A stretch of 64,000 bases of DNA from a bacterium (lineage in GTDB: Bacteria > Patescibacteriota > Patescibacteriia > JBAXGH01): NCBI GenBank assembly GCA_037139515.1, contig JBAXGH010000004.1:7514-71513 (forward strand), in the 5' to 3' direction. A program made the translations under genes and the position numbers. Of this stretch, positions 2,537 to 63,221 are shown piece by piece. The notes under the pieces are model-generated. The model had not been told where the DNA came from and made no database searches. It saw only the letters and a program-made list of their open reading frames with translations. The first letter of the stretch is position 1; each line of letters begins with the position of its first letter.

Positions 2537-2782
2537 ATGAGTTTCCCGAATCCTGACATGCTTGTTTACGTTGCAATGGGCGATGCTTGTGCTCTCGGAA
2601 CTGAGTATCTTAAGTTTCCGCGTGACAGTCAGATCGAGCTTGATATCTTGCGCTTCGACCGGTACTGCTCGCATCCCTTTCACAAGAACGCGCCGGGCGG
2701 AAAAAAGGGGACTGTCCCTTTTCCCCTTAAAGGTACAGGACATACAACATTTTCGGCTGAGTGTGGCTATGAAAAGGTCTGA
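2537..2782 (+). pseudogene. Truncated ADP-ribosylglycohydrolase (ARH/DraG-like) N-terminal fragment
   Basis: GGAGGA ribosome-binding site 9 nt upstream of the ATG. VYVAMGDACALGTEYLKF matches the ARH N-terminal GDALG..EF motif. The ORF ends after 81 aa inside a palindromic repeat element, whereas full-length enzymes are ~300 aa. Confidence 0.35.
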
Positions 2783-2822
2783 CCCCTTTAGCCTTAAAAG
2801 GGACAGTCCCCTTTCATGTGGA
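2705..2822. mobile_element. MITE-like insertion bounded by 18-bp inverted repeats that carry the GGGACWGTCCC palindrome
   Basis: aaggggactgtccctttt at 2704-2721 and its reverse complement at 2796-2813 flank ~70 bp. The element truncates the ARH-like ORF. Confidence 0.4.
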
Positions 2823-2868
2823 CAAAAAAATTCCCCGGGCGCACGTGGCGACTGGGGGGTTGAGCGTT

Positions 2869-3877: not shown

Positions 3878-4099
3878 ATGCCAACCACAAAGACAAGATT
3901 AGCGCTTTCGCTTGATTATGACTTGGAAAAAGCTCTCGAGCAAGTAGCTCGAAAGGCTAATGTTCCGGTTGCAACAAAAGCTCTCGAACTACTTCGGGAA
4001 GCTTTGGAGATTCAGGAAGATGTTTTGCTTGCACAGCTTGCGGAAGAACGCATGGCAGGAAAAATCAAATGGCTGAAACATGATTCGATATGGAAATAA
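3878..4099 (+). CDS. RelB/DinJ-type RHH antitoxin
   Basis: KTRLALSLDYDLEKALEQVARKANVPVATKALELLREALE. It overlaps the downstream RelE gene by 10 nt. A GGTGTATCACC palindrome lies at 3847-3857, just upstream. Confidence 0.75.
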   Translation: MPTTKTRLALSLDYDLEKALEQVARKANVPVATKALELLREALEIQEDVLLAQLAEERMAGKIKWLKHDSIWK

Positions 4100-4874: not shown

Positions 4875-7286
4875 ATGGCGGAAACAAAACCAAGTGATGT
4901 CAAAATAGTCGAGAATCTGGAAGGCGAGATGATTGATATTTTCGAGGCACCCAGAAAAGAATTTTCGGATGCGGCAGAAGAACTGTTTGGGCTCGAAAAA
5001 TTTACTGATGAGTTAAAAGTGGCGGAGATTTCAGTCCGCAGCAAAATCCGCGATGATGTTGGGGAAAAAGGATATGCGGAAGAACTGTCTGCTGGAACTC
5101 TAGCTAAACTGTTAGCTTTTGGAGCAAAATTATTGTCCGCTAAAGACGGTTTGAAGACCGCAAATTTGGTTCGGGTGCCGGAAGAGGGGATGAAGATCGT
5201 TGGAGTAGAGGAAGATGGCAAAAAATTTGAGCGCCTACTTACAGTTGATGAACAGGATTTTATTTTTGATTTGGAACTGAGTGCCGAGCAAGAATTGATG
5301 GCGGAAAATGTTCGCAGATTCAAAGTTTTTTTGGATGAGACATCTAAACTTTTGGAGGGCAGAGAGATGGAGGATCGCGAAAAGGAACTCCGCTTTATTG
5401 TTCGGCAACACTATAAATTGCTCGGTTTTTCCGCACAGGATGTAGATGTGCTTTTGGCCTCCGCTGGTTCGGGAATTCCCGAATTACACCCTGGTTCCAA
5501 GCCTGATGTTGATCGATTAGAAATCATGAAGCGGGTTTGGAATGAATATCTGACTCGGGCCGATAAGGGAAAGACGGCGGCTTTTGCCGGGGCGATGATG
5601 TGCATGGGCGCTTTTGAAGGTATCGCACCGAAAATCAGCCAGCAGCTTTTTGACTCGCCGGATATGCAATCGGCGGCGCTTTTCGGAGCGGCTTTTATGC
5701 TCATGCATCAGGTTACGGGGCGTTCAAAGGCGTTCATCGAGGAAAAGTATGGAATATTTATGCATGGGATTCTTGAACGATCAGGCGGTCTTTACGATCG
5801 AATTGGTCGGGCAGTCGTGAATATTCCGGGAGAGCAATTCTCTGAATCTGGCATAATGGAAAGAGGGCGTGTTTTTAGTCACGGCGAAGCGGCAATCGAT
5901 TCGACTCTGCGAGACGTTGTTCAGTCGCAGATTCCACAAATCGTAAGCCTCGGAACTACGATCGCGCTCCTGATTCAAACCGATTGGAGGTATGGTGCAG
6001 CTTCTTTGGTTTCTCTGCCGATTTCGATGTATGTTGAAAAGAGAATGCAGCGCAGAGTTGATGATGATTTGGATAGAGTTCGTGAACTGGCAAGGGCTAG
6101 TGAAGAAAGAGGCGAGAGGCTGAAAAAGGCGCATATCGAGGTGGCGCTTTCGGGAATGAGAAACATCATGTCCGATGCATATAAAGAGCTGCGTCAGACC
6201 GGGAATCGAAGGTCCGAGGCAATGACGTCTGATAGGAATAAAGACCGGATCTTGATGACGGATCTGATTGATCCTTTTTTTAAGATGTGGACGGTGGTGC
6301 TCGGAGTGGCTCTGCGGGCCGCCGGAAGCGGGGATGCCGGCAAAATTATTATGGCTCTGCAGTCGACCGAAGTTTTTAAAGGTTCAATCATGAATCTGAG
6401 CCGACAATATTCAAGATTATTTAGGTCATGTCGAGACGTGGTGGCTTTTGAGCGCGATCTTTTGATAACCGATGTGGAAGAAGCGGCGGATAAGAATCGT
6501 TTACCGGTTCAAGAAGTTCAGGAATATGCGTTTGAGTTGAAGGGCGTTGATTTTACTCAAGGCGATGCTCGGATTATAAAAAACGCCAGTTTTCAGGTAC
6601 CCGGTGGGGCGGTGGTTCGGCTTTCGGGTGAAAGCGGCCATGGAAAAACTACCTTAACTAAATTAATCACGGGATATTTTTCGCCATCAGTCGGGAGCGT
6701 GCTGCTTGACGGTCGCCCGATTGGAAATTTTAAGAAATCCGGGCCGGAATCGATTTATACGCGCTTTGCGTATCTAAATCAGATACCTTATGTGGAAGAG
6801 ACAGGGACTTTGCGAACGAATTTGATGTTTGGGAATGTTTCTAATAGTGATGATGTTTCGGAGGAAGATGAGGCTTTGATGCGCGATGTGATTGCCAGGT
6901 TGGGGCTGACTTCAAACCGTTTTTTGAAGAATGGCGTGGTTAATTTAGATGAAAGTGTGCGTGGAGTTTCTGGCGGTGAGCGCCGGCGTATCGGAATTGC
7001 GCGATTGCTTATGCGTTTGCGTAAAATGAAAGACGGCGGACTTGTGGTTTTGGATGAGCCGGCTGACGGTTTATCGGAAGATATGGAGCTTGAACTCGCA
7101 CAATTTATTCGTGAGGAAAAATTACGAAACCCAAAACTGACTTTGATTGTGGTGAGCCATCGCAGTAACTTTGTGCGTGGAATCGAGGGGGCTGAAACCG
7201 AGAATCCGCTCAATGTTCAAGAGGTGAATGTGCACATGGGAACGATAGTCGACGAGCTGCCTAAAAATCAGAAACCGGTTTTGTGA
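4875..7286 (+). CDS. Atypical ABC-type ATPase with a large N-terminal domain (~540 aa) and predicted TM segments
   Basis: The C-terminal domain has Walker A GESGHGKTT, the signature VSGGERRRIGIARLL and Walker B LVVLDEPADGLSED. The N-terminal region matches nothing I recognise. Confidence 0.7.
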   Translation: MAETKPSDVKIVENLEGEMIDIFEAPRKEFSDAAEELFGLEKFTDELKVAEISVRSKIRDDVGEKGYAEELSAGTLAKLLAFGAKLLSAKDGLKTANLVRVPEEGMKIVGVEEDGKKFERLLTVDEQDFIFDLELSAEQELMAENVRRFKVFLDETSKLLEGREMEDREKELRFIVRQHYKLLGFSAQDVDVLLASAGSGIPELHPGSKPDVDRLEIMKRVWNEYLTRADKGKTAAFAGAMMCMGAFEGIAPKISQQLFDSPDMQSAALFGAAFMLMHQVTGRSKAFIEEKYGIFMHGILERSGGLYDRIGRAVVNIPGEQFSESGIMERGRVFSHGEAAIDSTLRDVVQSQIPQIVSLGTTIALLIQTDWRYGAASLVSLPISMYVEKRMQRRVDDDLDRVRELARASEERGERLKKAHIEVALSGMRNIMSDAYKELRQTGNRRSEAMTSDRNKDRILMTDLIDPFFKMWTVVLGVALRAAGSGDAGKIIMALQSTEVFKGSIMNLSRQYSRLFRSCRDVVAFERDLLITDVEEAADKNRLPVQEVQEYAFELKGVDFTQGDARIIKNASFQVPGGAVVRLSGESGHGKTTLTKLITGYFSPSVGSVLLDGRPIGNFKKSGPESIYTRFAYLNQIPYVEETGTLRTNLMFGNVSNSDDVSEEDEALMRDVIARLGLTSNRFLKNGVVNLDESVRGVSGGERRRIGIARLLMRLRKMKDGGLVVLDEPADGLSEDMELELAQFIREEKLRNPKLTLIVVSHRSNFVRGIEGAETENPLNVQEVNVHMGTIVDELPKNQKPVL

Positions 7287-7869: not shown

Positions 7870-8615
7870 ATTTGAGTAGAGCTGACGCTCCAAAGAAATT
7901 CAAAAATCTGCTTAAGGCTGAAGGCTAAATCGGGTGAGTGAATAATAAAAGCCATGCCTTCGTTTTGCGAGGAGATTAGGCCGATATTATTTTCGTAAAT
8001 ATAAATCGAAGTTTTAAGATCGACGTAGGCGGGTAAATAACGGATTTGGCGAAGATATTCAGCCTCTTTAGTGAAGAGCGGGTCGTTCACGTTTTTATTC
8101 TGCACGCGAAGTGAGCGCGAACGTAGGCCTTTTTTAACTCGGTTTTCGATCCATTTTTTAATATAGGCGCGGTCTAAGGTTTGGGCGGTGAGTGACTGAG
8201 GAGAAAAATAGACGTATTCATTTTTTGCGACATTCAAAATATCGGCCAGCACTTCGCGGGCGGCGTGCGGGCCTTGAAAGGTTTGAGTGAATGGCGTTTT
8301 GGATTTTCCGGCGTAGAGCGAGAGAAAATCAGGGAGCAAATCTTTCAACTGATCACCCAAATTATCAAAGCGCTTTTTGAGTTCCTTCGGGTGCAGGGCG
8401 ACATAAGCGATGCGCTTGCCGTGTTTGATTGTCTGCACGTAGCCCCGAGATTCCAAAATTCGTAAGTTGTCATAGATAGCCGTTCGGCGCATTTTCATGG
8501 CGTCGGCGAGTTCGGCGGCTGTAGCTTCGCCTTTCGACAAAGTGGCGAGATAAAGCTCGGCCCTTTGTTCATCAAGACCGGTTTTGGTAAGCCAGGAAAG
8601 TAGGTTTGAGTTCAT
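7866..8615 (-). CDS. TrmB-family transcriptional regulator
   Basis: An N-terminal winged helix LDEQRAELYLATLSKGEATAAELADAMKMRRTAIYDNLRILESRGYV, plus the long C-terminal sugar-binding-like domain typical of TrmB. Confidence 0.7.
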   Translation of the reverse strand: MNSNLLSWLTKTGLDEQRAELYLATLSKGEATAAELADAMKMRRTAIYDNLRILESRGYVQTIKHGKRIAYVALHPKELKKRFDNLGDQLKDLLPDFLSLYAGKSKTPFTQTFQGPHAAREVLADILNVAKNEYVYFSPQSLTAQTLDRAYIKKWIENRVKKGLRSRSLRVQNKNVNDPLFTKEAEYLRQIRYLPAYVDLKTSIYIYENNIGLISSQNEGMAFIIHSPDLAFSLKQIFEFLWSVSSTQI

Positions 8616-8795
8616 ATGATGAGATATCTTTCATAAATAATTGACGAAGAAAGTATACATTAGTTGGCTAAAATAAGCAAATATGTGTGAATTTACTGTA
8701 TAGTCTTCTAAAATATTTGGCGTATTTGTATGGGTGGATTATGGTGTCTGTACCGCTGTGGTAGCGGCGCACACTGACAATCAAACGAGGAAAAC

Positions 8796-9162: not shown

Positions 9163-9837
9163 ATGAAAGCTGTTCCGTTTGTGCCGAAGGACCATGTGCC
9201 GCCAATTTTGGGCCGGCTCAAGTGTGATGAACTCACAATGCAGCTTGTACCTGAAGTGCGGAGTGTAGCCTGTCTCGTGATGGACTGCTCGACTTCAATG
9301 CGCGATTTTGGCAAAGCGCCGCGTCGCGTCATGAACGAGTACGTGAGGACTCTCCGTGAGTCAGTGTCAGCCAAAACTACGAGCGTTTGCGTGTTGCGCT
9401 TTGCTGCGGAGCTCGAAGTAGTGGCGCAAAACCAAATCGCAGTGGCCGCGGGTGACGTTCCTCGTTTCGAGCTCACCCGAGGCACGCGCTTGTTTGGAGC
9501 GCTGCTCACAGTGCTCGAAAAAGTGGTCGGAGCGGTTGAAGCCGAAAGGGCTCGCGGTCGCCCGGTGAACGCCACGGTCACGCTCTTTACCGACGGCTAC
9601 GATTGGCTTTCGACGCAAGAAGAAAGGCAAGCGTTGCCGGATATGGTCATGCAGGCCAAGATGAATGACGTAAAGGTTCTCCTTGTGGGAATCGGCGTCG
9701 AGCTATATGGCTTTGCCGACGAAATCTGGGTGGCGCCGTCGGATGTGATTTTCATCAAGCCGACCTGCGATGAGTTGATTCAGTCAGGGCGGGCGATCTC
9801 TGAAATCACCAGAGAGCGCTCCGAAAGTGCTCGATGA
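9163..9837 (+). CDS. von Willebrand factor A (VWA) domain protein
   Basis: A MIDAS motif DCSTSM (DxSxS) and a downstream TDG. Good ribosome-binding site. Preceded by the conserved two-hairpin leader. Confidence 0.65.
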   Translation: MKAVPFVPKDHVPPILGRLKCDELTMQLVPEVRSVACLVMDCSTSMRDFGKAPRRVMNEYVRTLRESVSAKTTSVCVLRFAAELEVVAQNQIAVAAGDVPRFELTRGTRLFGALLTVLEKVVGAVEAERARGRPVNATVTLFTDGYDWLSTQEERQALPDMVMQAKMNDVKVLLVGIGVELYGFADEIWVAPSDVIFIKPTCDELIQSGRAISEITRERSESAR

Positions 9838-11613: not shown

Positions 11614-11742
11614 TTATTCTTCTTCGTCCTCGTCATCTTCCTCTTCCGCCTCCGCTTCGATCTCTTCAAGGTTTTCTTCTTCGTCGAGTCCTGGCTCTTC
11701 AGGCTTCTTTGCTGCTGGATCTATGAACTTATCGTCTGCCAT
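11614..11742 (-). CDS. Tiny acidic protein (42 aa), MADDKFIDPAAKKPEEPGLDEEE...
   Basis: Open frame with strongly biased D/E composition. The ERIC-like element begins 8 bp upstream of the start. Weak. Confidence 0.3.
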   Translation of the reverse strand: MADDKFIDPAAKKPEEPGLDEEENLEEIEAEAEEEDDEDEEE

Positions 11743-11749
11743 AAATTTT

Positions 11750-11910
11750 AAGTCTGTTACCATATAAGCTCCAACCCAAAATGATAGCTTTCGGCAAACT
11801 CTAGGCGAAAAATTTTTAGCTTAGCAGGGGCTAAACGAAAAATTTTGTCGCCGTCGATTTTGCTCGAAATCTATCATTTTGTCTAAGAAGCTTATATGGC
11901 AACAGACTTA
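11750..11910. repeat. Rod-like palindromic element, copy 1 (ERIC/MITE-like or structured RNA)
   Basis: Terminal inverted repeats taagtctgttaccatataagct / aagcttatatggcaacagactta, with nested complementary halves. A second copy at 45781-45980 shows compensatory changes. Confidence 0.6.
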
Positions 11911-11989
11911 TAGTTAATTTTGTAACTCGGCATATAATACAAAACCAAGCGAAATTTTTCAAAGCCCATTTTCCACAGCCTGTTCACAT

Positions 11990-12612: not shown

Positions 12613-15255
12613 ATGCCGCAGAGCGCATGGCACTCGATGTCGGTGCGAGCGGTTTTTGAGGCGCAAAAAACGAGTGCGTCCGGGCTCGCACAAAAAGAGG
12701 CGGAAAGCCGGCTTTTTAAGTTTGGTCCGAACTCATTGCCTGCGGATCATCACGAAACGTGGTTGCGGATATTTTTGCGACAGTTTGCAAGCCCGCTCAT
12801 ATTTATTTTGATTTTGTCAGCCTTCGCGGTTTTGTGGCTTGGCGATACGACCGACGCTTATATAATTTTCGGGGTTTTGTTTTTCAATGCCTGCATCGGC
12901 GCAATTCAGGAAGGAAAAGCAGCACGCTCACTTGAAGCTTTGAAACGTTTGGTCGTGGTTGAAGCGACGGTTTTGCGCGATGGCAAGGAAGTTCGTCTGA
13001 AAGATGAGCAAGTTGTGCCCGGCGACGTGCTGGTTTTGCGTGAGGGCGAAAGAATTTCGGCTGATGCGCGTCTGATTTTCGCGCGCGAGTTTCAGGTTGA
13101 TGAGGCGATGATGACCGGAGAATCATTGCCGGCGAGAAAGTCCGCGGAGGCCTCTATTTCGGAGAATGCTGCCGTTGCCGACCGTCGCGATATGGTTTTT
13201 CGTGGTACTTACGTGGTTTCCGGTTCGGCTAAGGCTGTTGTTGTTGAAACCGGTCTGAATACGGTAATCGGAACGCTCGCGAAGTCACTTACGGTTCCTG
13301 ATACGGAAATGCCTCTTAAGGCAACGCTCGCAAAATTAACTGCTGTAATTGGTGCCGTTGTAGCGATCTGCATGGCGCTTCTGTTTGCTCTGGGACTTGC
13401 GCGCGGGCTTCCTCTGCGAGAGGTTTTCACCATCGCCGTTTCACTCGCAGTTTCGATTATTCCGGAGGGTCTGCCGATTGTGCTCACTATAATTCTTGCT
13501 TCCGGAGTTTGGCGCATGGCTCGCAAGCACGTTCTGGTGCGTAAATTACAGGCCGTGGAGGCGCTCGGACGGGCGACGGTGCTTGCGGTTGATAAAACCG
13601 GCACGATTACGCGTAATGAGCTGATGGTTGAGCGCGTAATTGCATCTGGCACGCGATATGACGTTCAAGGCTCTGGATATCATGCCAAGGGCGAGGTCTT
13701 GTTTGAGGGAAAAGCTCTTTCGAAGTCACAGCGCTCGGAAATAGAGATGATTGGAATCGCAGCATCGGCCTGTGCCGGCGCGGAACTTATTCATGATATT
13801 AAAACTGATACCTGGAAAGTGGTTGGTGATCCGACGGAGGCGGCGCTCGGAGTTTTTGCGCGCAAGCTTGGGATAGAAAAAAAGAAACTTCGGGTTTTAG
13901 ACGTGCTGCCATTTTCATATAACGAAAAAATGCAGGCGGTCGAAATCATGATTGGTTCGGAAAGAAAGCTTCTTGTTATCGGGGCGCCCGAAACTATTTT
14001 GAAGCGCACCGGTTTAAGCGCAAATGATCGAAAAGATTTTGAACGCGATTTTCTTTCGATGTCTGATGAGGGCCTGCGCGTTGTGGCGGTCGCAGTTGCG
14101 GAGCGGCCGGAAAAATTGCACTTTAACGAAATAAAAAAACTTACATTTTTGGGTTTTATCGGCATGAACGATAGTATTCGGCGCGAGGCGAGTGAGGCGG
14201 TCGCGCGCTGTTCAAAAGCCGGGGTTAAAATCGTGATGATAACCGGGGATCATCTTCGAACCGCCGAAGCGATTGCGCGTAAAGTGGGTATATTGCGCGT
14301 TCACGACGCCGTGATGACGGGTTATGAACTTGATACGATGACCGAAAAAGAATTCGCGCGCCTGCTTCCGCGCGTTACGGTTTTTGCGCGCATGACTCCG
14401 GAGCATAAACTTCGAATCATAAAAAAATATCGCGAATTAGGTGAGATTGTGGCTATGACGGGCGATGGCGTGAACGATGTGCCGTCGCTCGTTGCGGCGG
14501 ACCTGGGAGTCGCGATGGGCGGAATCGGAACCGACGTAACAACTTCGGCGGCCGAGGTTGTGCTTACGAATGATAACTTCGCTAACTTGATTGTCGGAAT
14601 TGAAGAGGGGCGTCACATGTATTCGGCCTTCAAAAAAGTCACGCTATATTTATTCTCAACTAATTTAGGCGAGGCACTTACAATTATCGGAGCTTTGTTT
14701 ATCGGCATGCCTTTACCTTTACTTGCGGCTCAAATCATCTGGTTAAATCTTGTAACGGATACTTTTTTGGATGTTTCACTCGCTATGGAACCTAAAGAAG
14801 AAGGGCTTTTGAATCGAGCACCGCGACTTGCGGGTGATGATTTTTTGAACAAGTCTGCGTTGCGTAGAATGTTTCTCATGGCCTTTGTGATGGCTTCCGG
14901 AACTTTGCTTGTGTTTAATTCTTATTCTTCCAGAAACCCCGAACTTGCTCTCACAATGTCACTCGTGACACTCGCAATTTTCCAGTGGTTCAATGTTTGG
15001 AACTGTCGATCGGAAACCAAGTCTGTTTTTGAGATTTCGCCGGTTTCTAATCGGCCGCTCTTAGCTGCGTTTTTGGTCGTGATTGGTTTGCAGCTCGCAG
15101 CGGTATATTTTTCGCCGCTTCAAAAAATTCTGCACACAGCACCGCTTACCGCAAGCGATTGGCTGCTCGCTATTTTTGTCGCACTTTCAATTATTGTAGT
15201 TGAAGAGGTTCGAAAGGGGATAGCGCGGCGAAAAAGAAAATCAGCTCTCGTTTGA
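12613..15255 (+). CDS. P-type cation-transporting ATPase (type II, Ca2+/Mg2+-like)
   Basis: A DKTGTIT phosphorylation motif, the MTGDGVNDVPSL hinge, TGES and GPNSLP. Confidence 0.85.
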   Translation: MPQSAWHSMSVRAVFEAQKTSASGLAQKEAESRLFKFGPNSLPADHHETWLRIFLRQFASPLIFILILSAFAVLWLGDTTDAYIIFGVLFFNACIGAIQEGKAARSLEALKRLVVVEATVLRDGKEVRLKDEQVVPGDVLVLREGERISADARLIFAREFQVDEAMMTGESLPARKSAEASISENAAVADRRDMVFRGTYVVSGSAKAVVVETGLNTVIGTLAKSLTVPDTEMPLKATLAKLTAVIGAVVAICMALLFALGLARGLPLREVFTIAVSLAVSIIPEGLPIVLTIILASGVWRMARKHVLVRKLQAVEALGRATVLAVDKTGTITRNELMVERVIASGTRYDVQGSGYHAKGEVLFEGKALSKSQRSEIEMIGIAASACAGAELIHDIKTDTWKVVGDPTEAALGVFARKLGIEKKKLRVLDVLPFSYNEKMQAVEIMIGSERKLLVIGAPETILKRTGLSANDRKDFERDFLSMSDEGLRVVAVAVAERPEKLHFNEIKKLTFLGFIGMNDSIRREASEAVARCSKAGVKIVMITGDHLRTAEAIARKVGILRVHDAVMTGYELDTMTEKEFARLLPRVTVFARMTPEHKLRIIKKYRELGEIVAMTGDGVNDVPSLVAADLGVAMGGIGTDVTTSAAEVVLTNDNFANLIVGIEEGRHMYSAFKKVTLYLFSTNLGEALTIIGALFIGMPLPLLAAQIIWLNLVTDTFLDVSLAMEPKEEGLLNRAPRLAGDDFLNKSALRRMFLMAFVMASGTLLVFNSYSSRNPELALTMSLVTLAIFQWFNVWNCRSETKSVFEISPVSNRPLLAAFLVVIGLQLAAVYFSPLQKILHTAPLTASDWLLAIFVALSIIVVEEVRKGIARRKRKSALV

Positions 15256-15260
15256 GGGCT

Positions 15261-15285
15261 GATTTTCTTAGCGGGTAAAGGGATT
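15261..15285. repeat. Direct repeat copy of the tRNA-Gly 3' end plus flank (gattttcttagcgggtaaaggga)
   Basis: Identical 23-mer at 15460-15482, which is the real tRNA 3' end. The copies are separated by a 174-bp GC-rich segment. Confidence 0.55.
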
Positions 15286-15436
15286 TCCGCCTAGCCGCGC
15301 GGAGCCCTTGGCGCGGCGTCGTTGTCCTGGGCAGCGGCAAAGCAAAGCCATTTGCTTTGCCGGCGCTCCGCGTCGGCCGCGTCACGCGGCCTAGCGTCGA
15401 CTTCTGCCCGTTCGACTCCTATTTCCGCAAATAAGA

Positions 15437-15460
15437 AAATCAACCTTCAAAAGAAGGTTG
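15437..15460 (-). terminator. Intrinsic terminator downstream of tRNA-Gly
   Basis: tcaaccttcaaaagaaggttga hairpin, followed on the minus strand by TTTTCTTATTT. Confidence 0.5.
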
Positions 15461-15468
15461 ATTTTCTT

Positions 15469-15540
15469 AGCGGGTAAAGGGAGTCGAACCCTTGTGTAGG
15501 GTTTGGAAAACCCCCATAATAACCGTTATATGATACCCGC
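15469..15540 (-). tRNA. tRNA-Gly (anticodon UCC)
   Basis: Manual fold: acceptor stem GCGGGTA/TACCCGC, anticodon loop TTTCCAA, T-loop TTCGACT, discriminator U. CCA is not encoded. Confidence 0.8.
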
Positions 15541-15593
15541 ATGGGTATTTTTCTGTTTCGAAATTATACTCAAAGGTGGTTTTTTCGTCTAGT

Positions 15594-15977
15594 CTATGTT
15601 CGTCCGCAACTTTGGCATCTGGTTCCGTATGGTGAGGTGAAGCCGGTCATCGAGCCGTCATTGGCTTTTTGGCAGGTCAGGCAGTAGCTCTGTGCGATTT
15701 TATTGAAAATACAGATATAGCGCGGTTGACCGCTATCAAGCCTCGGCCCGTTTACAATGTGATGGTTCTTTAATAGGGTCAGTTCCTGAACGACTGAATT
15801 TCGGGTTAGGTGGAAACCTTTTCTAAATAGAAGAACTCGAATTTCTTCGATGCCGAAAGCGCGACTCTTAATTGCGAGGATTGAAATCAGCTCGCTTCTA
15901 AGCGGGCTCAGCGCATAGCCGGCATTCTGAAGTTTTCGCAAGATCAAGTTTGCAATCATACTAATCGTATTATACAA
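15594..15977 (-). CDS. Fur-family transcriptional regulator
   Basis: A winged-helix N-terminus (SPLRSELISIL...NSVVQELTLLKNHHIV) and a C-terminal HH/Cys cluster (CLTC...CQSC). Confidence 0.65.
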   Translation of the reverse strand: MYNTISMIANLILRKLQNAGYALSPLRSELISILAIKSRAFGIEEIRVLLFRKGFHLTRNSVVQELTLLKNHHIVNGPRLDSGQPRYICIFNKIAQSYCLTCQKANDGSMTGFTSPYGTRCQSCGRT

Positions 15978-16002
15978 AAATCACAGTTTCCTGTGACTCT
16001 TG

Positions 16003-16079
16003 TGGTCGGGCTGCCGAGACTTGAACTCGGAACCTTCTGCTCCCAAAGCAGACGCGATAGCCAATTACGCTACAGCCCG
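16003..16079 (-). tRNA. tRNA-Pro (anticodon UGG), CCA encoded
   Basis: Manual fold: C1-G72 acceptor stem, anticodon loop TTTGGGA, T-loop TTCAAGT, discriminator A, then CCA. Confidence 0.8.
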
Positions 16080-16305
16080 ATGATATGAGTGTTGCAGTTT
16101 TGTGGTCGGCGCGAATACGAGCCGCGAAGCGGCAGAATCCGGAACGATGACGACGAAAATAGCAATTTTCGATCGTTAGCGGAACGGATTCGAATCGCGA
16201 AGCGATTAAGTATTCGCGTTGCGGTTTCAAAAGTATTACCGAATGAAGCTGGGATGTATCGAGCAGGGCTCGATACACTCCTACCTTTTAAAAACCGCAT
16301 TCCTG

Positions 16306-16377
16306 TGCCGAAGGGCAGAGTCGAACTGCCTACGCCTGCCTCTTCAGGGCAGCGCTCTACCGGTGAGCTACTTCGGC
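16306..16377 (-). tRNA. tRNA-Phe (anticodon GAA)
   Basis: Manual fold: acceptor stem GCCGAAG/CTTCGGC, anticodon loop CTGAAGA, T-loop GTTCGACT, discriminator A. Confidence 0.8.
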
Positions 16378-16452
16378 AAGGGAATACGGTTTTTGATTGT
16401 GCCGTGACTGTCCCAAGGTCAGCCGATAACAGGTATGTTATCACCTAACCCT

Positions 16453-16528
16453 GGTGGGCGTGCCAAGAATCGAACTTGGGACCTCGTCATTATCAGTGAC
16501 GCGCTCTAACCATCTGAGCTACACGCCC
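16453..16528 (-). tRNA. tRNA-Ile (anticodon GAU), CCA encoded
   Basis: Manual fold: acceptor stem GGGCGTG/CACGCCC, anticodon loop CTGATAA, T-loop TTCGATT. It is not adjacent to the 16S gene. Confidence 0.8.
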
Positions 16529-16874
16529 GTGTTGTGAGTGATGTGGCCTGGGAGTTTTTACGCTAAATTCACGCAGTGAATTTTTATTGAACGATTGTGA
16601 TAGCCGAAAGCTTGCTTTCGAGCTATTCACAAGCGGTCAATAATTTCGCCGCAGGCGATTAGGCGTAAAAAAGTTTTGGCCGATTTCCGAACCGCGCGGC
16701 GGGTATCGATTGCAAGGCAATCGATACCTCTAGACTCCCGTCAAGATCCCTCGGCTTCGGGATGACAGCAAGGAGGGGATGGTGAATGGAAGGACTCTGC
16801 TTTTAGCCCGACTATCCTATCAAAACCTCGTCAGACAGGCAAGATGCGTGACGGGTCTGCTATAATAGTGGTCT

Positions 16875-23700: not shown

Positions 23701-25970
23701 TCGAAGAGGGAAGCTTTGGCGGTAGCACGGAGGCTCAGAATAGTTATCGTGCGCGTGAGCAGAGCGGCGAAATGGTTGATTATAACTCCGGGCATTGGTA
23801 CGCAGATATAGATCGTCTGGGTTGCCTAGAATCCATCTACGCAAAACAACCAGAATATTTGCTGGATACCAAAAAGACATATTTAGAAAACAAAAAGAGA
23901 ATTCTTGAACTCTGCCCGAAATCACAATTTCGAGATTATCTTTTGATGAAAGCACTTGGTCTTGAGGTTCAGGGGAAACGTGGACTCTCGCGTGAATTTT
24001 CGATTTCACCGCTTGCTGATCGGCTGAATAATCCTGCTTTAATTGGCGCCACTGAAAATTCGGTTAATTTTATTGATACCTGGAAGTTTCCGGAAATGAC
24101 CCCGGCAATTTCAAAATATACTAAGTTTACGGAAAAAGCACGTGAAATTTTCAGCGAGCTTCGTTCCGATGATGCAAAAGATTTGCTTACAAGAATGGTT
24201 CTTGATAACGCGCCGAAAGATCTGCCGGAGCTTGAACTTCTTCGAATTACCGAATTTTATCCGGAGCCCTGCGTAGCGCGCGATGATTATCTGAAGAAGT
24301 TCATGCTTCGGAATTCTCTGAGCATTGAAAAGATTCAGGAGTTGCGCAAACTTTTCACGACCGAAGCGTTGCGTGGCGGGGAAGTTCCGCAAATGAAGAT
24401 GCTCGGACTGGAAGTCGCAAGAACCGAAGGGCGGCGACTCAAGAATAAAAAACGCAGTGATTATGTGAACTGGATTTTGGGCGTCGATAAGTATCCGCCG
24501 ACCGAAATGATGAATGCTGGCGGTGCTTTTGGTTTTTCTTTTGAAAGTATTCGCAACGGATTTGCGGGCTTAACCGAAACCGAACGCGAGCGTTCTTTTG
24601 ATGAGCTCCTTTTGCATGATGAGGGAATGCTGGATCCGAAGACTCCGGAGGATCACGAGGCGATGGATAATTTTTTGCGAAAAGTTTATCGCGAAAAATT
24701 TTCGGCTAAGAAAAATACAGAAGCGGAGGCGGAAAATGATATTTTTGAAAAAGTCTTCATGACGGTTTTTCAGAATTTCATTCCGGAGCGTCGAGCGAAA
24801 CTATTTTCCGCACTTTATTCGGCGATGAAAGATAAAAAAGGCGAGAGAATGGAATTCGAAGAGCTTGCCGGCACGTTTCTGGAACAAATTGGCGCCGTTG
24901 GAATCAAACTTGGCCAGATTCTTTCATCGAATGATAATTTACCTTTCAGCCGTGAGAATAAACCGATGCCGAAAAAGCTAAAAGATCGTCTGAAGCGGTT
25001 AAAAGATGGTGTTAGGCCGTTCTCAGTGATCGGTTCCGCTCAGCGCCTGGTTGATTTTGGTCTTGATAAGCAAGTCAAAACAATCGACGGACTCCTTGCC
25101 GCCGCTTCAATCAAGCAGGCGCATTCGGTAACGCTTGCGAACGGCGAGCGCGCGGTTTTGAAGGTGCGTCGCCCGGTTATCGATGATGTTCGCAATGATT
25201 TTGAGGTTCTGGGCGCGGTCTTTAAGGTTTTGAACGAAAATGGTTATCAGGTGCCAAAGTATCTATTGTCTGAGCTCGAAACCATCATTGCCGACGAAGC
25301 TGATTTCACCAAAGAGGCTTCAAACCAGCAGTTGCTTAGCGAAAATATGCCCGAGAGAGTTGGCGGCATGAAGGCGAAGACTCCGGAGATTAGCGCTACC
25401 GCGAGAGGCGTTATGCTTGAAAGGTTTGCTTCCAGCACACCGTATGAAAAATTCAAAAACAAGAATCCGGAAGAAGCTGGCAGAATTTCCGGCGATCTTG
25501 GGCTCGAGATATTGCGCGGGCTCACGAAGACCGGCGTTCTGCACGCCGATTTGCATGACGGAAATATTTTTGTCGATGGTGCCGGAAAAGAAATGACTCT
25601 GATTGACGCCGGTGCCGTTGCCGACATCAGAAAAGTTCAAAAATCAGTGCTCAGGATTTATAAAGGTCTCTCGATGAAAAATAGTCGCATGGTCGCGAAG
25701 TCGATTATCGCGCTTTCGGAGAAGTCCGACCTGGATGCAGAAGCCCTTGCCGGTTCACTCGAAGCAATCGTGAATAGCGGTGAAGGCGTTGATAAAAAGG
25801 CCACCAAACTTTCGTTTGAAATTCTTAATTCGGTTAATCCCGGACCGGAATTGCGATACTTTTTGAAAGCGCTCGCGACCGGCGGACATCATATCGATAA
25901 GATAGATGCGACGAAACCGAAAAATGCGTGGGAACTCGCAAAAGCCGGTGTTAGAATCATGGCTTCTTAA
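20718..25970 (+). CDS. Giant protein (1750 aa) with an N-terminal HExxH zincin-like motif, a long helical middle and a C-terminal UbiB/ABC1-family atypical kinase domain
   Basis: LAHEMRHL at ~aa 180. The C-terminus has AAASIKQAHSVTLANGERAVLKVRRP, VLHADLHDGNIFV and LIDAGAV, which matches the ABC1/UbiB kinase signature. Confidence 0.8.
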   Translation: MGSELGVENILEREPDHRDTPITEPLEKLRRVLDTVTKAENIHKKALEANQKKEKEADARLHSLREKSTVEQLEHFVGFEKDPEFLAKIDEITQKLAKAAGFTRKVKTISVSGDTINAFVYVDKSPGSNEDAPGVYTGSQNEGHIVFLYTGLVTKLAEHLAKQGKKLNEGHIAGVLAHEMRHLIQQKEKRSEKVTRKQEEYDADLGGVELMGRAGYSPRDVVETMDFLKELSKRMPYSKSHPAAASRIVEISGRISNPDLPVPGIEIPSVELTALPKTQTYEGRFDESFEASKPGGEVTDFVRNLLSNSESMFDLHVKRSIASSAIDLAFAKEFVNRPEIPGFFMQYLLLEGRAAEQEIQNEETVIKNIEDDVLGLEAKKMSGGISNEEEYKLNEWKESIRFHQKSLARAKLGGDSRLQLTYNLTHESRLKAWGGELPRLDSEASLRMQSNTEEKINREKFLVENGSLAGGREEAHLEVKANQNVNWDEAASEWLAGKGFSGVHKDTLELGYKRIQASFKNAQSNKDELVKGFAFELDRMNRLEGLAKEQESRRLSAVVADDFRNKFQEILDADLPKDIPDSERAQIYELFAGAFDPIQLSEPGAKAVLEFLKKEIFDNNSIDVGGKAGTLTSQKPARFNLYYVVRAVVESGVSLDAEYLNKTISELKIKCPAEISAFERLEKLNRETRLLSEEGTAAGYYLDTGSKLPSAERDILRKKIVSNLSRSHRDVFGFLILAYGLYLPKDGFLDKESSALFLIKLIKDGYDDHVMTGVLGKLQEKSPSDRETRLRIGSLYDRLKNPRRNTYDASGSELDSLLEFIKAEGIPLPEALAEVYRHNLEGSDVFLEYKKLWQNGDLKGADLRKYYELIRGIERRTNDFGYEPHAHGILAFISAEHFEKTDPVFAAKIVDDQMGEYKYSEKIYEEKLSFEQIIADFPKGKLRNGLLHDCWKRNGASISDFEKLSPFFTEEPESYGMKGENNLGAGFVIIFGNNIEEGSFGGSTEAQNSYRAREQSGEMVDYNSGHWYADIDRLGCLESIYAKQPEYLLDTKKTYLENKKRILELCPKSQFRDYLLMKALGLEVQGKRGLSREFSISPLADRLNNPALIGATENSVNFIDTWKFPEMTPAISKYTKFTEKAREIFSELRSDDAKDLLTRMVLDNAPKDLPELELLRITEFYPEPCVARDDYLKKFMLRNSLSIEKIQELRKLFTTEALRGGEVPQMKMLGLEVARTEGRRLKNKKRSDYVNWILGVDKYPPTEMMNAGGAFGFSFESIRNGFAGLTETERERSFDELLLHDEGMLDPKTPEDHEAMDNFLRKVYREKFSAKKNTEAEAENDIFEKVFMTVFQNFIPERRAKLFSALYSAMKDKKGERMEFEELAGTFLEQIGAVGIKLGQILSSNDNLPFSRENKPMPKKLKDRLKRLKDGVRPFSVIGSAQRLVDFGLDKQVKTIDGLLAAASIKQAHSVTLANGERAVLKVRRPVIDDVRNDFEVLGAVFKVLNENGYQVPKYLLSELETIIADEADFTKEASNQQLLSENMPERVGGMKAKTPEISATARGVMLERFASSTPYEKFKNKNPEEAGRISGDLGLEILRGLTKTGVLHADLHDGNIFVDGAGKEMTLIDAGAVADIRKVQKSVLRIYKGLSMKNSRMVAKSIIALSEKSDLDAEALAGSLEAIVNSGEGVDKKATKLSFEILNSVNPGPELRYFLKALATGGHHIDKIDATKPKNAWELAKAGVRIMAS

Positions 25971-25982
25971 CTTTAGAAAAAT

Positions 25983-26801
25983 ATGGAACCAAATGAGCAT
26001 ACGGGATTTAGTGATGTAAAGGATTCTCAGCGTGAGCCGACGGTTGCAAGGGCTCCAGATATTGATAAGCCTCATGCGGAGGAACCCGCTGAGCTGAAAC
26101 ATCGGCTCGCGTCGATGAAACGCGAGGATTTTGCTGAATATTTGATACATCATGGAAAAGAATTTGGTGAGATGGTTCAGATTCCGAGGTTTGGATCAGA
26201 CGTAAATCAGGTCTATGGAGTGATTACGAGAAGACCGGAGTTTCGCGGTCTTTCGGAAAAAGAAATCGATAAAGCGGTCAAGCCTTTGGAAGATGAAGTA
26301 TCGGGACCGTCACAGGTCTTTGGAATGCCACAGGTGATTCGTTCAATTAGAATTCAGGAAGAAACAAAAAATAGAGAAAATGTCGTTTATGAGTTTTCCG
26401 GCGCGTTCTTGAGTTGGAAATTTCGTAATGGCTCGACGGAAGACGTAGCTCATAAAAAAGCCTGGATTACGCTTCCAGATCCGCTTCATGAAATTACACC
26501 GCAACTAATAGGTAATGTGATTGAAGCTATCGTAGCTTCAGGTTTTTCAGGAAACCTGAAAATATTAAATCGCACCAAAGCAATAGTCAGACGCTACGAG
26601 AATATCACTATTCATGCGGATAACGATGAAGAACTCGATAAAGCGCAAAAAGCTGCGGTTCATGCCTTGCTCTTGGATGGCGTTATGCCGCAGGGTGTAG
26701 CGCGAGGACAGGATTCGGTCGAAATGTCTGATAATCAACTCTTGGCGGGAAAAATCTGCAAGGCGCTGACGCCAAATGGCAAAATAACCTGGTGGTTTTA
26801 G
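25983..26801 (+). CDS. Unknown-domain protein, paralog A (one copy of a ~250-aa domain)
   Basis: Shares ELK(H/R)RLASMKREDF...VITRRPEFRG...HKKAWITL.DP..EITP...TIHADNDDE.DKAQKA...PQGVARG with the two domains of the next gene. Confidence 0.6.
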   Translation: MEPNEHTGFSDVKDSQREPTVARAPDIDKPHAEEPAELKHRLASMKREDFAEYLIHHGKEFGEMVQIPRFGSDVNQVYGVITRRPEFRGLSEKEIDKAVKPLEDEVSGPSQVFGMPQVIRSIRIQEETKNRENVVYEFSGAFLSWKFRNGSTEDVAHKKAWITLPDPLHEITPQLIGNVIEAIVASGFSGNLKILNRTKAIVRRYENITIHADNDEELDKAQKAAVHALLLDGVMPQGVARGQDSVEMSDNQLLAGKICKALTPNGKITWWF

Positions 26802-26890
26802 GCGGACATCACATTGATAAAATTGATGTGAGCGATCCGAAGAGCGCTCAGGAACTCGCAAAAGCCGGTGTCAGAATCATGGCTTCTTAA
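26802..26890 (+). repeat. Duplicated 3'-end fragment of the giant gene (would encode GGHHIDKIDVSDPKSAQELAKAGVRIMAS*)
   Basis: Near-identical to 25881-25970 (GGHHIDKIDATKPKNAWELAKAGVRIMAS*). It is followed by the same spacer-and-start arrangement (ATGGAACCAA...). Confidence 0.6.
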
Positions 26891-26902
26891 TCTTAGAATA
26901 CT

Positions 26903-40721: not shown

Positions 40722-40786
40722 ATAGATATGTTTTTACTAATTCTGCAGTGAAAAACCGCAAATGTCAATCGCCGCCGTGAAAAATT

Positions 40787-40825
40787 CGCTTAAAATGCTC
40801 GGGACTGTCCCCAGCATTTTAAGCG
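40787..40825. terminator. 39-bp palindrome CGCTTAAAATGCTCGGGACTGTCCCCAGCATTTTAAGCG (GGGACWGTCCC family). Probable terminator.
   Basis: Near-perfect inverted repeat. A second copy at 63093-63131 has compensatory swaps. It lies after the gene at 40888-41154 on the minus strand. Confidence 0.55.
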
Positions 40826-40887
40826 AAAAAAATCGGGGCGTGGCTCGCGGCATTTTCATGGCCGCGAGTTCGTTTCCCGTTTCGAAC

Positions 40888-45149: not shown

Positions 45150-45385
45150 CCTCCGTCGTCCTCGAAAAATCAGCAGATTTTATCGAGGATCTAAGACAAC
45201 TGCATGGATCCCCGATAATTCGTGCTCGAATTTCGGGGAAGACGTACTTTAGGGCCAGCAAGGCACACAGAGGATCTTTCTGTTTCAAGAAACTGCCGTC
45301 TGGACTTTGCAGAACGCCCTGCCGGCGATTAAGCCGGCGAACACAAAGCCACCGGACTTCAGTCCGGTGGTCGTTTACTTTTGCA
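45150..45385 (+). ncRNA. Candidate structured small RNA, copy A (shares a 5' module with the 57977-58157 copy)
   Basis: Conserved TCGAAAAATCAGCAGATTTTATCGAG(G/A)ATC...GGATCC(C/T)CGATA...GGAAGACGT with covarying stems. It ends in the ccaccggacttcagtccggtgg hairpin plus a T-rich tail. Confidence 0.35.
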
Positions 45386-53696: not shown

Positions 53697-55007
53697 ATGA
53701 GTGAGTTATTTCTCGGCGTTTTCGCATTGTTGCCTTTGATTATTGATGCATCTGCGATAAGACCATTCGAAACGCCAAAAATTCAATTATTCGAAATCGC
53801 CGTCGTATTTTTTGCGGCGGCGGTTTTGATTTCTAGGTTCCACAGTCGTTTGCGCTCAGGCAAGTGTCCCTCGGGGACAGTCCCCGGGGGACACCTGCCT
53901 GGAGTAGACGTGTCCACTTTGGATTTATGCGTGCTTGGAAGTTTTGCAATCTTAGCGCTTGCTTCAGCCTTTTCGATTTCACCGGGTTTGTCGTTCTTTG
54001 GTTCGGAGGAGCGGGTTTTAGGATTAGTTTTTTATCTTGCCGTTACAGCGATGTATTTCTGTATTCGAATCGATGCCAACTCTGAAGGTTTGCGGAAATA
54101 TTTTTTCGCGAGCCTCGCGGTTTCCGTAATCGTCGCGGTCTACGGTATCGCGCAGTGGTTCGGATTTGATGTCGCGGGTTTGCAGAATTCTTTTCCGGTC
54201 TACGGAACCTATGGCGCCGAGCGCGCTTTTGGAACCATCGGGCATCCGAATCTTTTTGCTGCCTATCTCGCGATGATTCTGCCCTTCGCCCTGCTTTTAC
54301 CGCGATTTTGGATGCGAACTCTTTTTGTGTTCATACTCTCGTTTGCGATTTTAGCCTCGTATTCACGCGCCGCTTGGATTGCTGCCGGCCTTGGCATGAT
54401 GGCTTCGGTTTCGTGTCTTTATCCGGTTTTGGCGCGAAAATGGTTACCACGATTTGCGGGAATTGCCGCGGTCTTAATAACCGTGATTTTTCTAAACGGG
54501 CCAAGCCTTCTCAACTCTTCGAATTCATTTTTGTTTCGTCTCGGAACTTTGACTGATTTTCAAAACGGCTCGGCGCGAGCGCGTTTGGAGGAGTGGAAGT
54601 TTGGCGCGACAAAATTACTCGAGCGTCCGATTTTGGGCTATGGCCCGGAAACCTATGCGCTTATTTCCTATACGCGAGTAAAAAATCCGCATGAAGCGGC
54701 CCGCGGCGCCCCGGGTCCGGATCCGTCGATTGCCGACAGGCTTCATAATTTGGAGCTGGATACTCTGTGGAACTCCGGGATTCTTGGACTCGTGGCGCTA
54801 CTCATGACGCTCTGGTTTGCGTTTCGTGAGTTGCGAGTCTGGCTAAAATCCGGAAAAAATCGCGTTGAAGCCGCGGCCGTCATGGGTTCGCTCGTCGCAT
54901 ATCTTGTTGCAAATCAAGCGGGTTTTGATTTTTCAGTGACAGCGATTTTGTTTTCGCTTTTGCTCGCGAGAATCGCTTTTGCGGAAGAAGAAAAACCGGA
55001 GTTTTGA
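53697..55007 (+). CDS. O-antigen ligase (Wzy_C/WaaL-like) family membrane protein with an in-frame palindrome insert
   Basis: Multi-TM, with YSRAAWIAAGLGMMASV (Wzy_C-like). The segment GKCPSGTVPGGHLPG is encoded by the 32-bp palindrome at 53863-53894. Confidence 0.6.
   Translation: MSELFLGVFALLPLIIDASAIRPFETPKIQLFEIAVVFFAAAVLISRFHSRLRSGKCPSGTVPGGHLPGVDVSTLDLCVLGSFAILALASAFSISPGLSFFGSEERVLGLVFYLAVTAMYFCIRIDANSEGLRKYFFASLAVSVIVAVYGIAQWFGFDVAGLQNSFPVYGTYGAERAFGTIGHPNLFAAYLAMILPFALLLPRFWMRTLFVFILSFAILASYSRAAWIAAGLGMMASVSCLYPVLARKWLPRFAGIAAVLITVIFLNGPSLLNSSNSFLFRLGTLTDFQNGSARARLEEWKFGATKLLERPILGYGPETYALISYTRVKNPHEAARGAPGPDPSIADRLHNLELDTLWNSGILGLVALLMTLWFAFRELRVWLKSGKNRVEAAAVMGSLVAYLVANQAGFDFSVTAILFSLLLARIAFAEEEKPEF
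53863..53894. repeat. 32-bp near-perfect palindrome GTGTCCCTCGGGGACAGTCCCCGGGGGACAC (GGGACWGTCCC family) inside a coding sequence
   Basis: One mismatch between the arms. The reading frame is maintained. Confidence 0.6.
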
Positions 55008-63073: not shown

Positions 63074-63092
63074 AGTATTTTTTCGCTTTTTT

Positions 63093-63131
63093 CGCTTAAA
63101 ATGCTGGGGACAGTCCCGGGCATTTTAAGCG
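63093..63131 (+). terminator. 39-bp palindrome CGCTTAAAATGCTGGGGACAGTCCCGGGCATTTTAAGCG plus T-tract. Terminator of the Clp-like gene.
   Basis: Second copy of the 40787-40825 palindrome, followed by GTTTTTTATTG. Confidence 0.6.
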
Positions 63132-63221
63132 GTTTTTTATTGTTTCTCCCTGTTGACAAGGGTGAGCCGTTGTGATAGCAATTAGCGCAGTAACCCGTGG
63201 AGGGAATCCAAGGAGGAAGGC

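Follow-up and report, generated by a model that had tools for sequence, protein, structure and literature searches.

How does one short palindrome come to stand behind genes, inside the reading frame of a membrane-protein gene and beside a broken gene in the same piece of bacterial DNA? The question is raised by a 64-kb stretch of contig JBAXGH010000004.1 (the window, meaning the whole stretch that was analysed), probably part of a small genome of the candidate phyla radiation (CPR), in which the 11-nt core GGGACWGTCCC (W being A or T) is found five times. We favour, at about an even chance, the reading that the five sites are short dispersed hairpin-forming repeats, non-autonomous and mobile, which resemble repetitive extragenic palindromic (REP) sequences and their doublets (REPINs) or very small miniature inverted-repeat transposable elements (MITEs). 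Three features together make up the signature of a mobile element: the copy-like relatedness of the elements, segments within genes that are multiples of three, and presence or absence between relatives. In addition, the core is kept exactly across phyla while the arms around it vary and covary, which argues for a sequence-specific reader of the core.

Results

One core in differing contexts

An exact-match scan placed the core within 1 nt of the positions first given for it (Table 1). Its excess over expectation is real and statistically solid in the window: five sites were observed against a mean of 0.01 and a maximum of 1 in dinucleotide-preserving shuffles. The core is the joint commonest 11-mer, the equally frequent words being all A-rich and of low complexity, and among palindromes of the form N5-x-N5' (5-1-5) it alone is present more than twice. 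When the search of the window was relaxed to two mismatches or fewer, extra matches appeared at chance level only. The half-sites GGGAC and GTCCC are not enriched, with 32 and 19 occurrences in 64 kb against about 62 expected per 5-mer, a figure of our own arithmetic that supposes uniform base composition. Every one of the five cores is the centre or a part of a longer palindrome, and these elements fold far better than shuffled sequence (z -3.4 to -7.3). The window holds about 18 strong hairpins; the three centred on the core are the longest, and the others are ordinary terminators with unique sequences. As had been proposed, this is a single family with a common core in differing contexts, namely the 3' ends of genes, a coding insert and a doublet at a broken gene.

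An asymmetric element at gene ends

Two of the cores are the centres of 39-nt palindromes, at 40787-40825 and 63093-63131, which are present as claimed; in extended form their arms reach 52 nt, with 94% complementarity between both loci. Their differences had been taken for reciprocal, compensatory changes. This does not hold: once the copy around 40801 is reverse-complemented it matches the copy around 63107 except at one A/G position, which gives U.G, and the apparent compensation is therefore an effect of orientation. What the window contains is one asymmetric element of about 51 nt (A-type) in opposite orientations, with a single real difference.

Scanning of JGI metagenomes gave four further near-identical copies on four contigs of one sample, Ga0194060. 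Similarity of these contigs (GC 0.47-0.53) to the window is limited to the A-type and other short repeat families, and 44 kb of their flanks contain no cores beyond the A-type copies. They are chromosomal, with genes for TrpRS/TyrRS, DnaG, RuvC, sigma-70, GreA, type IV secretion system pilins and a phosphoesterase. With the loop read as CAG, the consensus of the six copies is T6-CGCTTAAAATGCT-G-GGGACAGTCCC-G-AGCATTTTAAGCG-A(n). The left arm is invariant except for one base in the copy of contig L027, all remaining changes fall in the right arm, and a G.G mismatch stands beside the core in 4/6 copies. No base pair is changed on both sides in any of the six, and the one-sided stem changes (3/3) are G.U in the transcribed (CAG-loop) sense. 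The invariant left arm and the common asymmetry argue for descent from one asymmetric master copy and not for convergent terminators. All six copies are intergenic or at the 3' edge of a gene, and the RNA-sense orientation is identical in the four copies (4/4) whose context is unambiguous. The alignment of the six showed no shared flanking duplication.

Both window copies lie in terminator positions, as had been stated, with a stem and a T-run behind genes at 63093-63138(+) and 40825-40775(-). Read on the minus strand, the first element of Table 1 (40780-40831) runs T-run, CGCTTAAAATGCT, G, GGGACAGTCCC, G, AGCATTTTAAGCG, A-run; its minus-strand RNA folds at -31.8 kcal/mol (z -6.7) with UUUUU directly after the stem, followed by AATTTTTC and then by a promoter-like TTGACA-17-CAGAAT at 40768-40740 that belongs to the DUF4153 gene. 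The copy at 63087-63138 folds at -27.6 kcal/mol (z -6.2), and its stem (63093-63131) is followed by G and T6 (63133-63138). Termination at these two copies is plausible from their anatomy; a long stem with a T-run behind a gene would likely end transcription or shield the transcript's 3' end. The first 9 nt of the latter element (TTTTTCGCT) are tandemly duplicated immediately upstream (63078-63096), which could be a slippage or an insertion footprint. An independent Logan assembly contig, L033, terminates within the core at window position 63116, as is expected where an assembler meets a multi-copy palindrome.

The loci of the nearest available relatives (L029, 21 kb; L139-L141, 29 kb; AAA protein 61-76% identical) have no core in 50 kb, and no such element is found behind their orthologous AAA genes, which speaks for a gain specific to the lineage of the window.

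A palindrome read in frame

The third core-centred hairpin is within the coding sequence of an O-antigen-ligase-like gene (Pfam Wzy_C). That it is in frame was correctly predicted; its size was not, being 45 nt (53857-53901) and not 32 bp. Its layout is GTCCC-N3-GGGAC-A-GTCCC-N3-GGGAC with the flanks CAGGCA/TGCCTG, it folds at -41.2 kcal/mol (z -7.3), and the gene reads through it as ..SGKCPSGTVPGGHLP... The site corresponds to the loop after the first transmembrane segment; this segment is conserved upstream, and the remainder of the protein continues downstream in the same frame. The closest homologues, P0002 and P0003, are shorter there by 16 and 15 residues, and an Uhrbacteria homologue (L141) by about 9. 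Insertion at this place is well supported yet unproven, as the homologues are 42-47% identical and the loop is variable.

A doublet beside a broken gene

The two remaining cores, GGGACTGTCCC (2708-2718) and GGGACAGTCCC (2800-2810), belong to a 111-nt composite element with arms at 2704-2733 and 2785-2814 and a hairpin-forming 51-nt spacer between them. The arms match over 30 nt at 83%, their inner 19 nt being an exact reverse complement, and the whole folds as a single long hairpin in which the cores are paired (-50 and -53 kcal/mol, z -3.4 and -4.0, for the two strands). T-runs are absent from this doublet. An outer inverted repeat around 2704-2814 was not significant, with 280 of 500 shuffles scoring as high.

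Six nucleotides before the doublet ends the remnant of an ADP-ribosylglycohydrolase (ARH) gene. In phmmer searches it matches proteins of about 300 amino acids (aa) that carry PF03747, across query residues 1-55 only; by alignment and tblastn the homology stops at 2698, and the remaining approximately 245 codons are nowhere in the window. The earlier description of MITE-like inverted repeats that truncate this open reading frame (ORF) thus stands as to the arms and their position next to a truncated gene; that the unit caused the truncation is what we infer. Toxin-antitoxin-like genes flank the pair, with a RelE/ParE-like 88-aa ORF and a 96-aa partner on one side (1910-2475) and a 73-aa ribbon-helix-helix-like ORF on the other (3878-4099). 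The region looks like an accessory patch.

The core in other bacteria and in viral contigs

A scan of species-representative genomes with one arm plus the core gave five matches in a gammaproteobacterial metagenome-assembled genome (MAG). Its element of about 140 nt, present in at least five copies, has a double core GGGGACAGTCCC-TTA-GGGACTGTCCCC with conserved flanks and about 26 nt in common with the CPR arm, and one contig of 206 kb holds four copies, all in the same orientation. A single core with other arms, AAATGGGGACTGTCCCCATTT, lies in the same MAG, 48 nt past a histidine-kinase gene. Moreover, a core-hairpin-core unit is found in a Thermoguttaceae MAG.

Paired cores are frequent in IMG/VR, where we found 57 stretches at a gap of 1-30 nt and 34 at 31-60 nt (some in both lists), against a chance expectation that we estimate at below one. 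With two control palindromes of equal composition the counts were 9 and 8 stretches, mostly tandem iteron-like arrays, the first control sharing half-sites; the viral paired-core stretches are about 7-fold above a control palindrome. These contigs span a GC content of 0.33-0.72, and several have 3-8 units. The usual unit is (G)GGGACTGTCCC, a hairpin and GGGACTGTCCC(C), with a stem sequence particular to each phage group. Most apparent single viral cores have a partner core with 1-2 mismatches, and the median z of whole-unit folds is -5.6. A polar subfamily of 17 non-identical units always has T/T cores, core 1 pairing with core 2 around a central U.U; compensatory double changes occur in it at three stem pairs (A-U/U-A 9:7, G-C/A-U/C-G 9:7:1). 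The core-hairpin-core units are apparently a family without earlier description. Searches of Rfam 15 (gathering and E-value thresholds) with the window, the gammaproteobacterial loci and eight phage loci matched only rRNA and tRNA; full-text literature searches with the core in DNA, RNA and degenerate spellings returned only eukaryotic primers and probes; and blastn of the A-type, the gammaproteobacterial element and a phage unit against cultured plasmids and phages gave nothing meaningful.

At least 20-30 of the 83 viral loci share Mu-like genes, and others have lambda-like portal and protease modules. Two Mu-like contigs, L042 and L077, encode a MuA-like transposase, MuB, Gam, portal and MuF. 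In Mu-like phages the units are not at the phage ends; they lie between cistrons, as in L042, where one unit is directly past the stop codon of the portal gene and 15 nt before the next start. Others are inside genes. In two phages, 62% identical over the aligned C-terminal region of MuA, in-frame units occupy the same spot of the MuA linker, with cores that are exact though read in different frames and with spacers wholly different in sequence and length. The phrog_286 gene has a unit in L077 and none in its L099 orthologue. Units are found in both orientations within one co-directional operon of L077.

Translational bypassing of the T4 gene 60 or byp-like kind was considered for the in-frame units and rejected, because the cores in the L077 MuA gene are 37 nt apart and a 37-nt hop would shift the frame, whereas plain read-through keeps the conserved C-terminus. 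A count of viral units inside long open frames was discarded as uninformative in high-GC contigs. The orientation of W in paired cores (78 direct, 17 inverted) is not used as evidence, since the units belong to a few sequence families and do not count as independent. In some viral contigs, either high-GC or AT-rich, the core or the half-sites TGTCCC/GGGACA form tandem arrays with 10-19-nt periods.

Table 1. Location of the core, of the elements that contain it and of other features (positions without a contig label are those of the window)
Feature	Location	Strand	Context
Core GGGACWGTCCC, exact, five in the window	2708-2718, 2800-2810, 40801-40811, 53874-53884, 63107-63117		
A-type palindromic element	40780..40831	-	After 88-aa ORF 40888-41154(-) and another hairpin; upstream of promoter-like site of DUF4153 gene
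A-type palindromic element	63087..63138	+	Begins 14 nt past stop codon of AAA+ gene 61919-63073
A-type copy	L021		Overlaps and provides TAA stop of extracytoplasmic function (ECF) sigma gene
A-type copy	L019		Between convergent genes
A-type copy	L027		Behind 687-aa ORF
A-type copy	L017	antisense	Between 294-aa ORF and RNase J
45-nt palindrome, 15 codons in frame	53857..53901	+	Within Wzy_C (O-antigen-ligase-like) gene 53697-55007
Composite element, 111 nt	2704..2814	not assigned	Two inverted arms, REPIN/MITE-like architecture
ADP-ribosylglycohydrolase remnant, residues 1-55	2537..2698	+	Ends 6 nt before composite element
Dispersed intergenic element, ~140 nt	L006, L010, L011, L015, L016; also L018, L020, L023		First five loci: CAVXCW01, Gammaproteobacteria MAG MFD03551.bin.1.18
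Viral core-hairpin-core units	L042:10612-10656; L077:6772-6819, 8611-8658, 9220-9268; also L049, L056, L099, L120 and ~80 further loci		
Half-site/core arrays	L108:7818-7886, L078:1060-1166, L058:3670-3705, L095:8484-8512, L080:122-170, L072:6213-6245		Resemble iteron or centromere arrays
Repeat TGTCATCCCGAAGCCGAGGGATCTTGA	1322-1348, 16741-16767, 32293-32321; L017:5494-5525		Last copy on Ga0194060 contig
Repeat family rich in GGCCGTAGG	36813-36896, 43073-43113, 62006-62046		
MITE-like elements, ~180-200 nt	11741-11918, 45779-45981		Terminal inverted repeats AGTAAGCCTGTTGCCATTTAAGCT...
Repeat CGTCGTCCTCGAAAAATCAGCAGATTTTATCGAGGATC	45154-45247, 57999-58036; L027:853-895, 6851-6945		L027 copies on Ga0194060 contig
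Tandem paralogous genes	25983-26801, 26903-28459		Within 25881-28459
Block between Wzy_C and AAA+ genes, ~6.9 kb	55022-61897		
16S rRNA gene, complete	33424-34920	-	
Four tRNA genes	15469-16528	-	Gly, Pro, Phe, Ile
Near-identical hairpins	15234-15270, 15432-15468		Edge of tRNA cluster; second abuts tRNA-Gly

Discussion

Proposed mobile repeats around a recognised core

If the sites are mobile repeats, each element, an extended palindrome around the core, would multiply by copying to new places. An enzyme or binding protein, encoded outside the window and acting in trans, would recognise the core either as a duplex or as a folded single strand. Copies would then persist where harm is small, that is behind genes, in frame in the flexible loop of the Wzy_C protein and at the junction left by the loss of the ARH gene. 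The arms would be lineage-specific and the core a widely used recognition module, given that it is constant in the phage units and recurs in two or more bacterial MAGs that are unrelated. Mobility in trans, termination activity and recognition of the core by a protein are what we infer from this arrangement. The original prediction had left the choice between a mobile repeat and a recognition sequence. In this sense, both parts found support: mobility in the further copies in unrelated contexts and the absence from relatives, recognition, indirectly, in the conservation of the core alone across very different lineages.

Several observations weigh against such mobile repeats. No target-site duplication was found at the 111-nt element, whose flanks GGCGGAAA and CATGTGGA are not direct repeats. 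The homologues on which the insertion argument draws are 42-76% identical, so that no truly empty orthologous site was seen in CPR, and the copy count is limited to that of the window, five in 64 kb. No match to Y1/HUH, DDE or serine/tyrosine recombinases was found among the scanned ORFs of about 108 kb of CPR sequence (the window and 44 kb of related contigs, the final scan of the latter covering the best 25 families listed), and neither the dedicated recombinase nor the nearby Y1/HUH transposase or orphan methyltransferase that had been suggested came to light there. A GIY-YIG match in the related contigs was dropped after motif searches failed to place it in an ORF. The tetranucleotides GTAG/CTAC, typical of REPs, are missing in and beside the A-type consensus, the 111-nt element and the 45-nt palindrome. 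As to the A-type, a T-run directly follows the stem in 3/6 copies only, the L017 copy is antisense to its neighbouring genes, and a simple terminator consensus scan did not call either window copy. Within the element the T-run is on the 5' side and the A-run on the 3' side; together with the 3/6 count and the result of the scan this indicates that termination does not define the family. Finally, the half-site arrays of some phage contigs are more like protein-binding arrays than transposable units.

Comparison with known repeats

REP sequences and their REPIN doublets are mobilised by REP-associated tyrosine transposases (RAYTs) of the Y1/HUH class (Bertels & Rainey 2011, PMC3116915; Nunvar et al. 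2010, PMC2817692; Messing et al. 2012, PMC3479197). They are recognised as imperfect palindromes of about 20-40 nt, mostly extragenic, that occur in doublets, have a GTAG/CTAC foot, typically exceed 100 copies and accompany a single-copy RAYT gene flanked by repeats. Like REPs, the elements described here are short imperfect palindromes, multi-copy, mostly extragenic, non-autonomous and placed behind genes, and the 111-nt element and the phage core-hairpin-core units are, like REPINs, inverted doublets that fold as one hairpin. They differ in the lack of the GTAG foot (one phage subfamily carries CCGTAGA in its stem) and of a RAYT gene among the scanned ORFs, in the reduced CPR host in place of a proteobacterium, and in their in-frame copies inside genes. 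Moreover, REPs are lineage-specific and vertically inherited, whereas an 11-nt perfect palindrome is here common to phyla and phages.

With MITEs (Correia, ERIC, RUP, Nezha) and the PATEs derived from IS200/IS605, they share small size, terminal inverted repeats, lack of coding capacity, a place at gene ends where they sometimes supply stop codons or terminators, and presence or absence in relatives, as in the phage phrog_286 gene. Unlike these, they show no target-site duplication, are far smaller (39-111 nt) and match no autonomous insertion sequence, no transposase having been found in the scanned CPR sequence; in the A-type and in the Wzy_C copy the core is central and not terminal. Failing on both GTAG and target-site duplication, they appear to be a new variant of short dispersed palindromic repeat outside REP/RAYT and MITEs.

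Rickettsia palindromic elements, of 100-150 bp and confined to Rickettsia, lie in frame in protein-coding genes, where the additional peptide is tolerated in loops. The in-frame palindromes of the Wzy_C, phage MuA and phrog_286 genes, which add loop peptides, are similar to them; there is no sequence in common and most copies here are intergenic. Arrays of the TIGR-Tas kind are clusters in which each unit has two spacers between box C/box D motifs, beside a tas gene with a Nop domain (10.64898/2026.09.09.750476). This class was rejected: the CPR copies are single and scattered, a RUGAUGA/CUGA pair is absent from the A-type, and the scanned ORFs gave no Nop-domain match within the families listed.

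Alternative explanations

The alternative that best withstands the evidence, though we hold it to be unlikely, is that a dimeric DNA-binding protein, be it a global repressor, a partition or nucleoid protein or a phage repressor of the stoperator or CIR type, uses the core as its operator and blocks or insulates transcription at gene boundaries, the arms being secondary. A perfect 5-1-5 palindrome kept across lineages of widely different GC content in variable surroundings would be expected of an operator, and so would cores that remain exact within coding sequence despite different reading frames, the evenly spaced arrays of some phage contigs and the position of the copy at 40780-40831 directly before a promoter-like site. 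Temperate phages are known to have repressor sites scattered between their genes, such as the stoperators of Cluster A mycobacteriophages and the conserved inverted repeats (CIRs) of phiC31. These resemble the core in being short sites repeated through a phage genome at gene boundaries, often beside a stem-loop. However, each serves one phage cluster and its repressor, whereas the core spans many phage types and bacterial chromosomes, is paired around covarying hairpins and behaves as if inserted. An operator leaves unexplained the identical arms of about 51 nt, with one asymmetry, at six unrelated loci, as well as the insertion-like in-frame segments and the covariation of the stems that separate paired cores. 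The window copies mostly stand at 3' ends and not at promoters, and neither a candidate regulator nor any other protein family was found in common between the CPR and phage loci.

Less probable in our judgement is a signal at the level of RNA, in which, for instance, RNase III cuts the long hairpins or an RNA-binding protein reads the GGGAC-W-GUCCC helix or loop, for processing or stability, and selection at cistron boundaries has spread the sites. Phage T7 has RNase III sites between its cistrons, and REP hairpins of E. coli stabilise the upstream mRNA. The strong folds, the compensatory changes in the stems of phage units, the restriction of one-sided changes to G.U in the transcribed sense, the sense-orientation bias of the CPR copies and the many phage units, for example L042:10612-10656, that fill the space between a stop codon and the following start agree with such a signal. 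Against it, units occur in both orientations in one co-directional operon (L077), copies within essential coding regions would be cleaved, and RNase III does not need conservation of an 11-nt helix sequence; nor was there any Rfam match.

That the sites are independent intrinsic terminators and chance palindromes, made similar by local duplication or gene conversion, is very improbable. Two copies do have Rho-independent anatomy and position, that is a stable stem and a T-run behind a stop codon, among many other hairpin terminators of the window. However, those others are unique in sequence, the A-type sequence recurs at several loci with a usable 3' T-run in half of its copies, five sites far exceed expectation, identical elements are found on other contigs, and the core is shared with a coding insert, with a doublet that lacks T-runs and with other phyla and phages.

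As background to the last alternative, CPR bacteria are thought to rely on DNA uptake, Neisseria uptake sequences often form inverted pairs in terminators, and both these and those of Haemophilus, like HIP1 (GCGATCGC) of cyanobacteria, number hundreds to thousands per genome, about one per kb, without long conserved arms; GGGAC is the BsmFI-type IIS site and ACNGT the TaaI site. A role of the core in uptake or as a restriction-modification or methylation target, as first suggested, is barely credible: it shares with HIP1 and uptake sequences an over-represented palindromic word in coding and non-coding DNA, sometimes as terminator pairs, but its density is only about 1 per 13 kb with every core embedded in an extended hairpin, its half-sites are not enriched, close relatives lack it, the Pfam scan of window ORFs gave neither a methyltransferase nor a restriction gene, and its occurrence in many phages runs counter to an avoidance of restriction sites.

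A possible wider class of elements

A broader proposal, which goes beyond the mobile repeats of the window and which we put forward tentatively, is that the core is the recognition module of a cross-phylum class of structured elements without earlier description, comprising single-core hairpins and polar core-hairpin-core units, in temperate phages, notably Mu-like ones, and in bacterial chromosomes including those of CPR, served by one conserved protein. This protein might be a new kind of hairpin-dependent nuclease that mobilises the elements, an analogue of REP/RAYT that phages also carry from host to host, or else a DNA-binding factor common in phages and hosts. In that case the copies in CPR would be members of the class that have either been domesticated or are invading. 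An exact 11-nt core at GC contents from 33% to 72%, with covarying stems, points to a conserved system of recognition between protein and nucleic acid. The interest of the finding exceeds that of a repeat private to one lineage, since through the core a CPR chromosome is tied to a large family of units in uncultivated temperate phages. The partner protein, if identified, could reveal a new mechanism of mobilisation or regulation in temperate phages and offer a handle on the control of gene boundaries in uncultivated lineages.

To our knowledge, reduced CPR genomes are not characterised by palindromic repeats of a dispersed kind, and none was reported in the literature searched. A family that creates terminators, adds peptides to membrane proteins and marks the junctions of gene loss would be an active force in the evolution of these bacteria.

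Host lineage and other features of the window

The host is probably an Uhrbacteria-like member of CPR, as the genes suggest. Window proteins are closest to those of Candidatus Uhrbacteria / Patescibacteria; the AAA protein is 61% identical to an Uhrbacteria protein and 76% to its best match, a JGI protein, and the Wzy_C protein reaches 42-47%. There is a lone 16S rRNA gene, no 23S rRNA match in the 64 kb, four tRNA genes and many ORFs without Pfam families. The window sequence is also present in ENA and Logan assemblies.

Between the Wzy_C and AAA+ genes, which are adjacent in the Uhrbacteria relative L141, lies a block that encodes an AAA_5 ATPase of 1049 aa, AbiEii and a transglutaminase-core protein, and that looks like an inserted defence-type island. 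The tandem paralogous genes share segments 73-82% identical at an offset of about 908-920 nt and are without Pfam family.

Other short repeats are dispersed in the window. Two copies of the TGTCATCCCGAAGCCGAGGGATCTTGA repeat are 100% complementary, and the repeat has a small hairpin of its own inside. In the third family, rich in GGCCGTAGG, an 84-nt back-to-back palindrome lies shortly before the conserved portion of trmD, another copy is contained in the pyrD (DHO_dh) ORF, and the AAA+ gene has a weaker one; the last (62006-62046) was considered as an insertion and rejected, having no length excess against homologues. The two larger MITE-like elements have terminal inverted repeats of 24-30 nt and internal segments 76-87% identical. 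The repeat CGTCGTCCTCGAAAAATCAGCAGATTTTATCGAGGATC is, like TGTCATCCCGAAGCCGAGGGATCTTGA, also found in the Ga0194060 sample, and two near-identical hairpins stand at the edge of the tRNA cluster.

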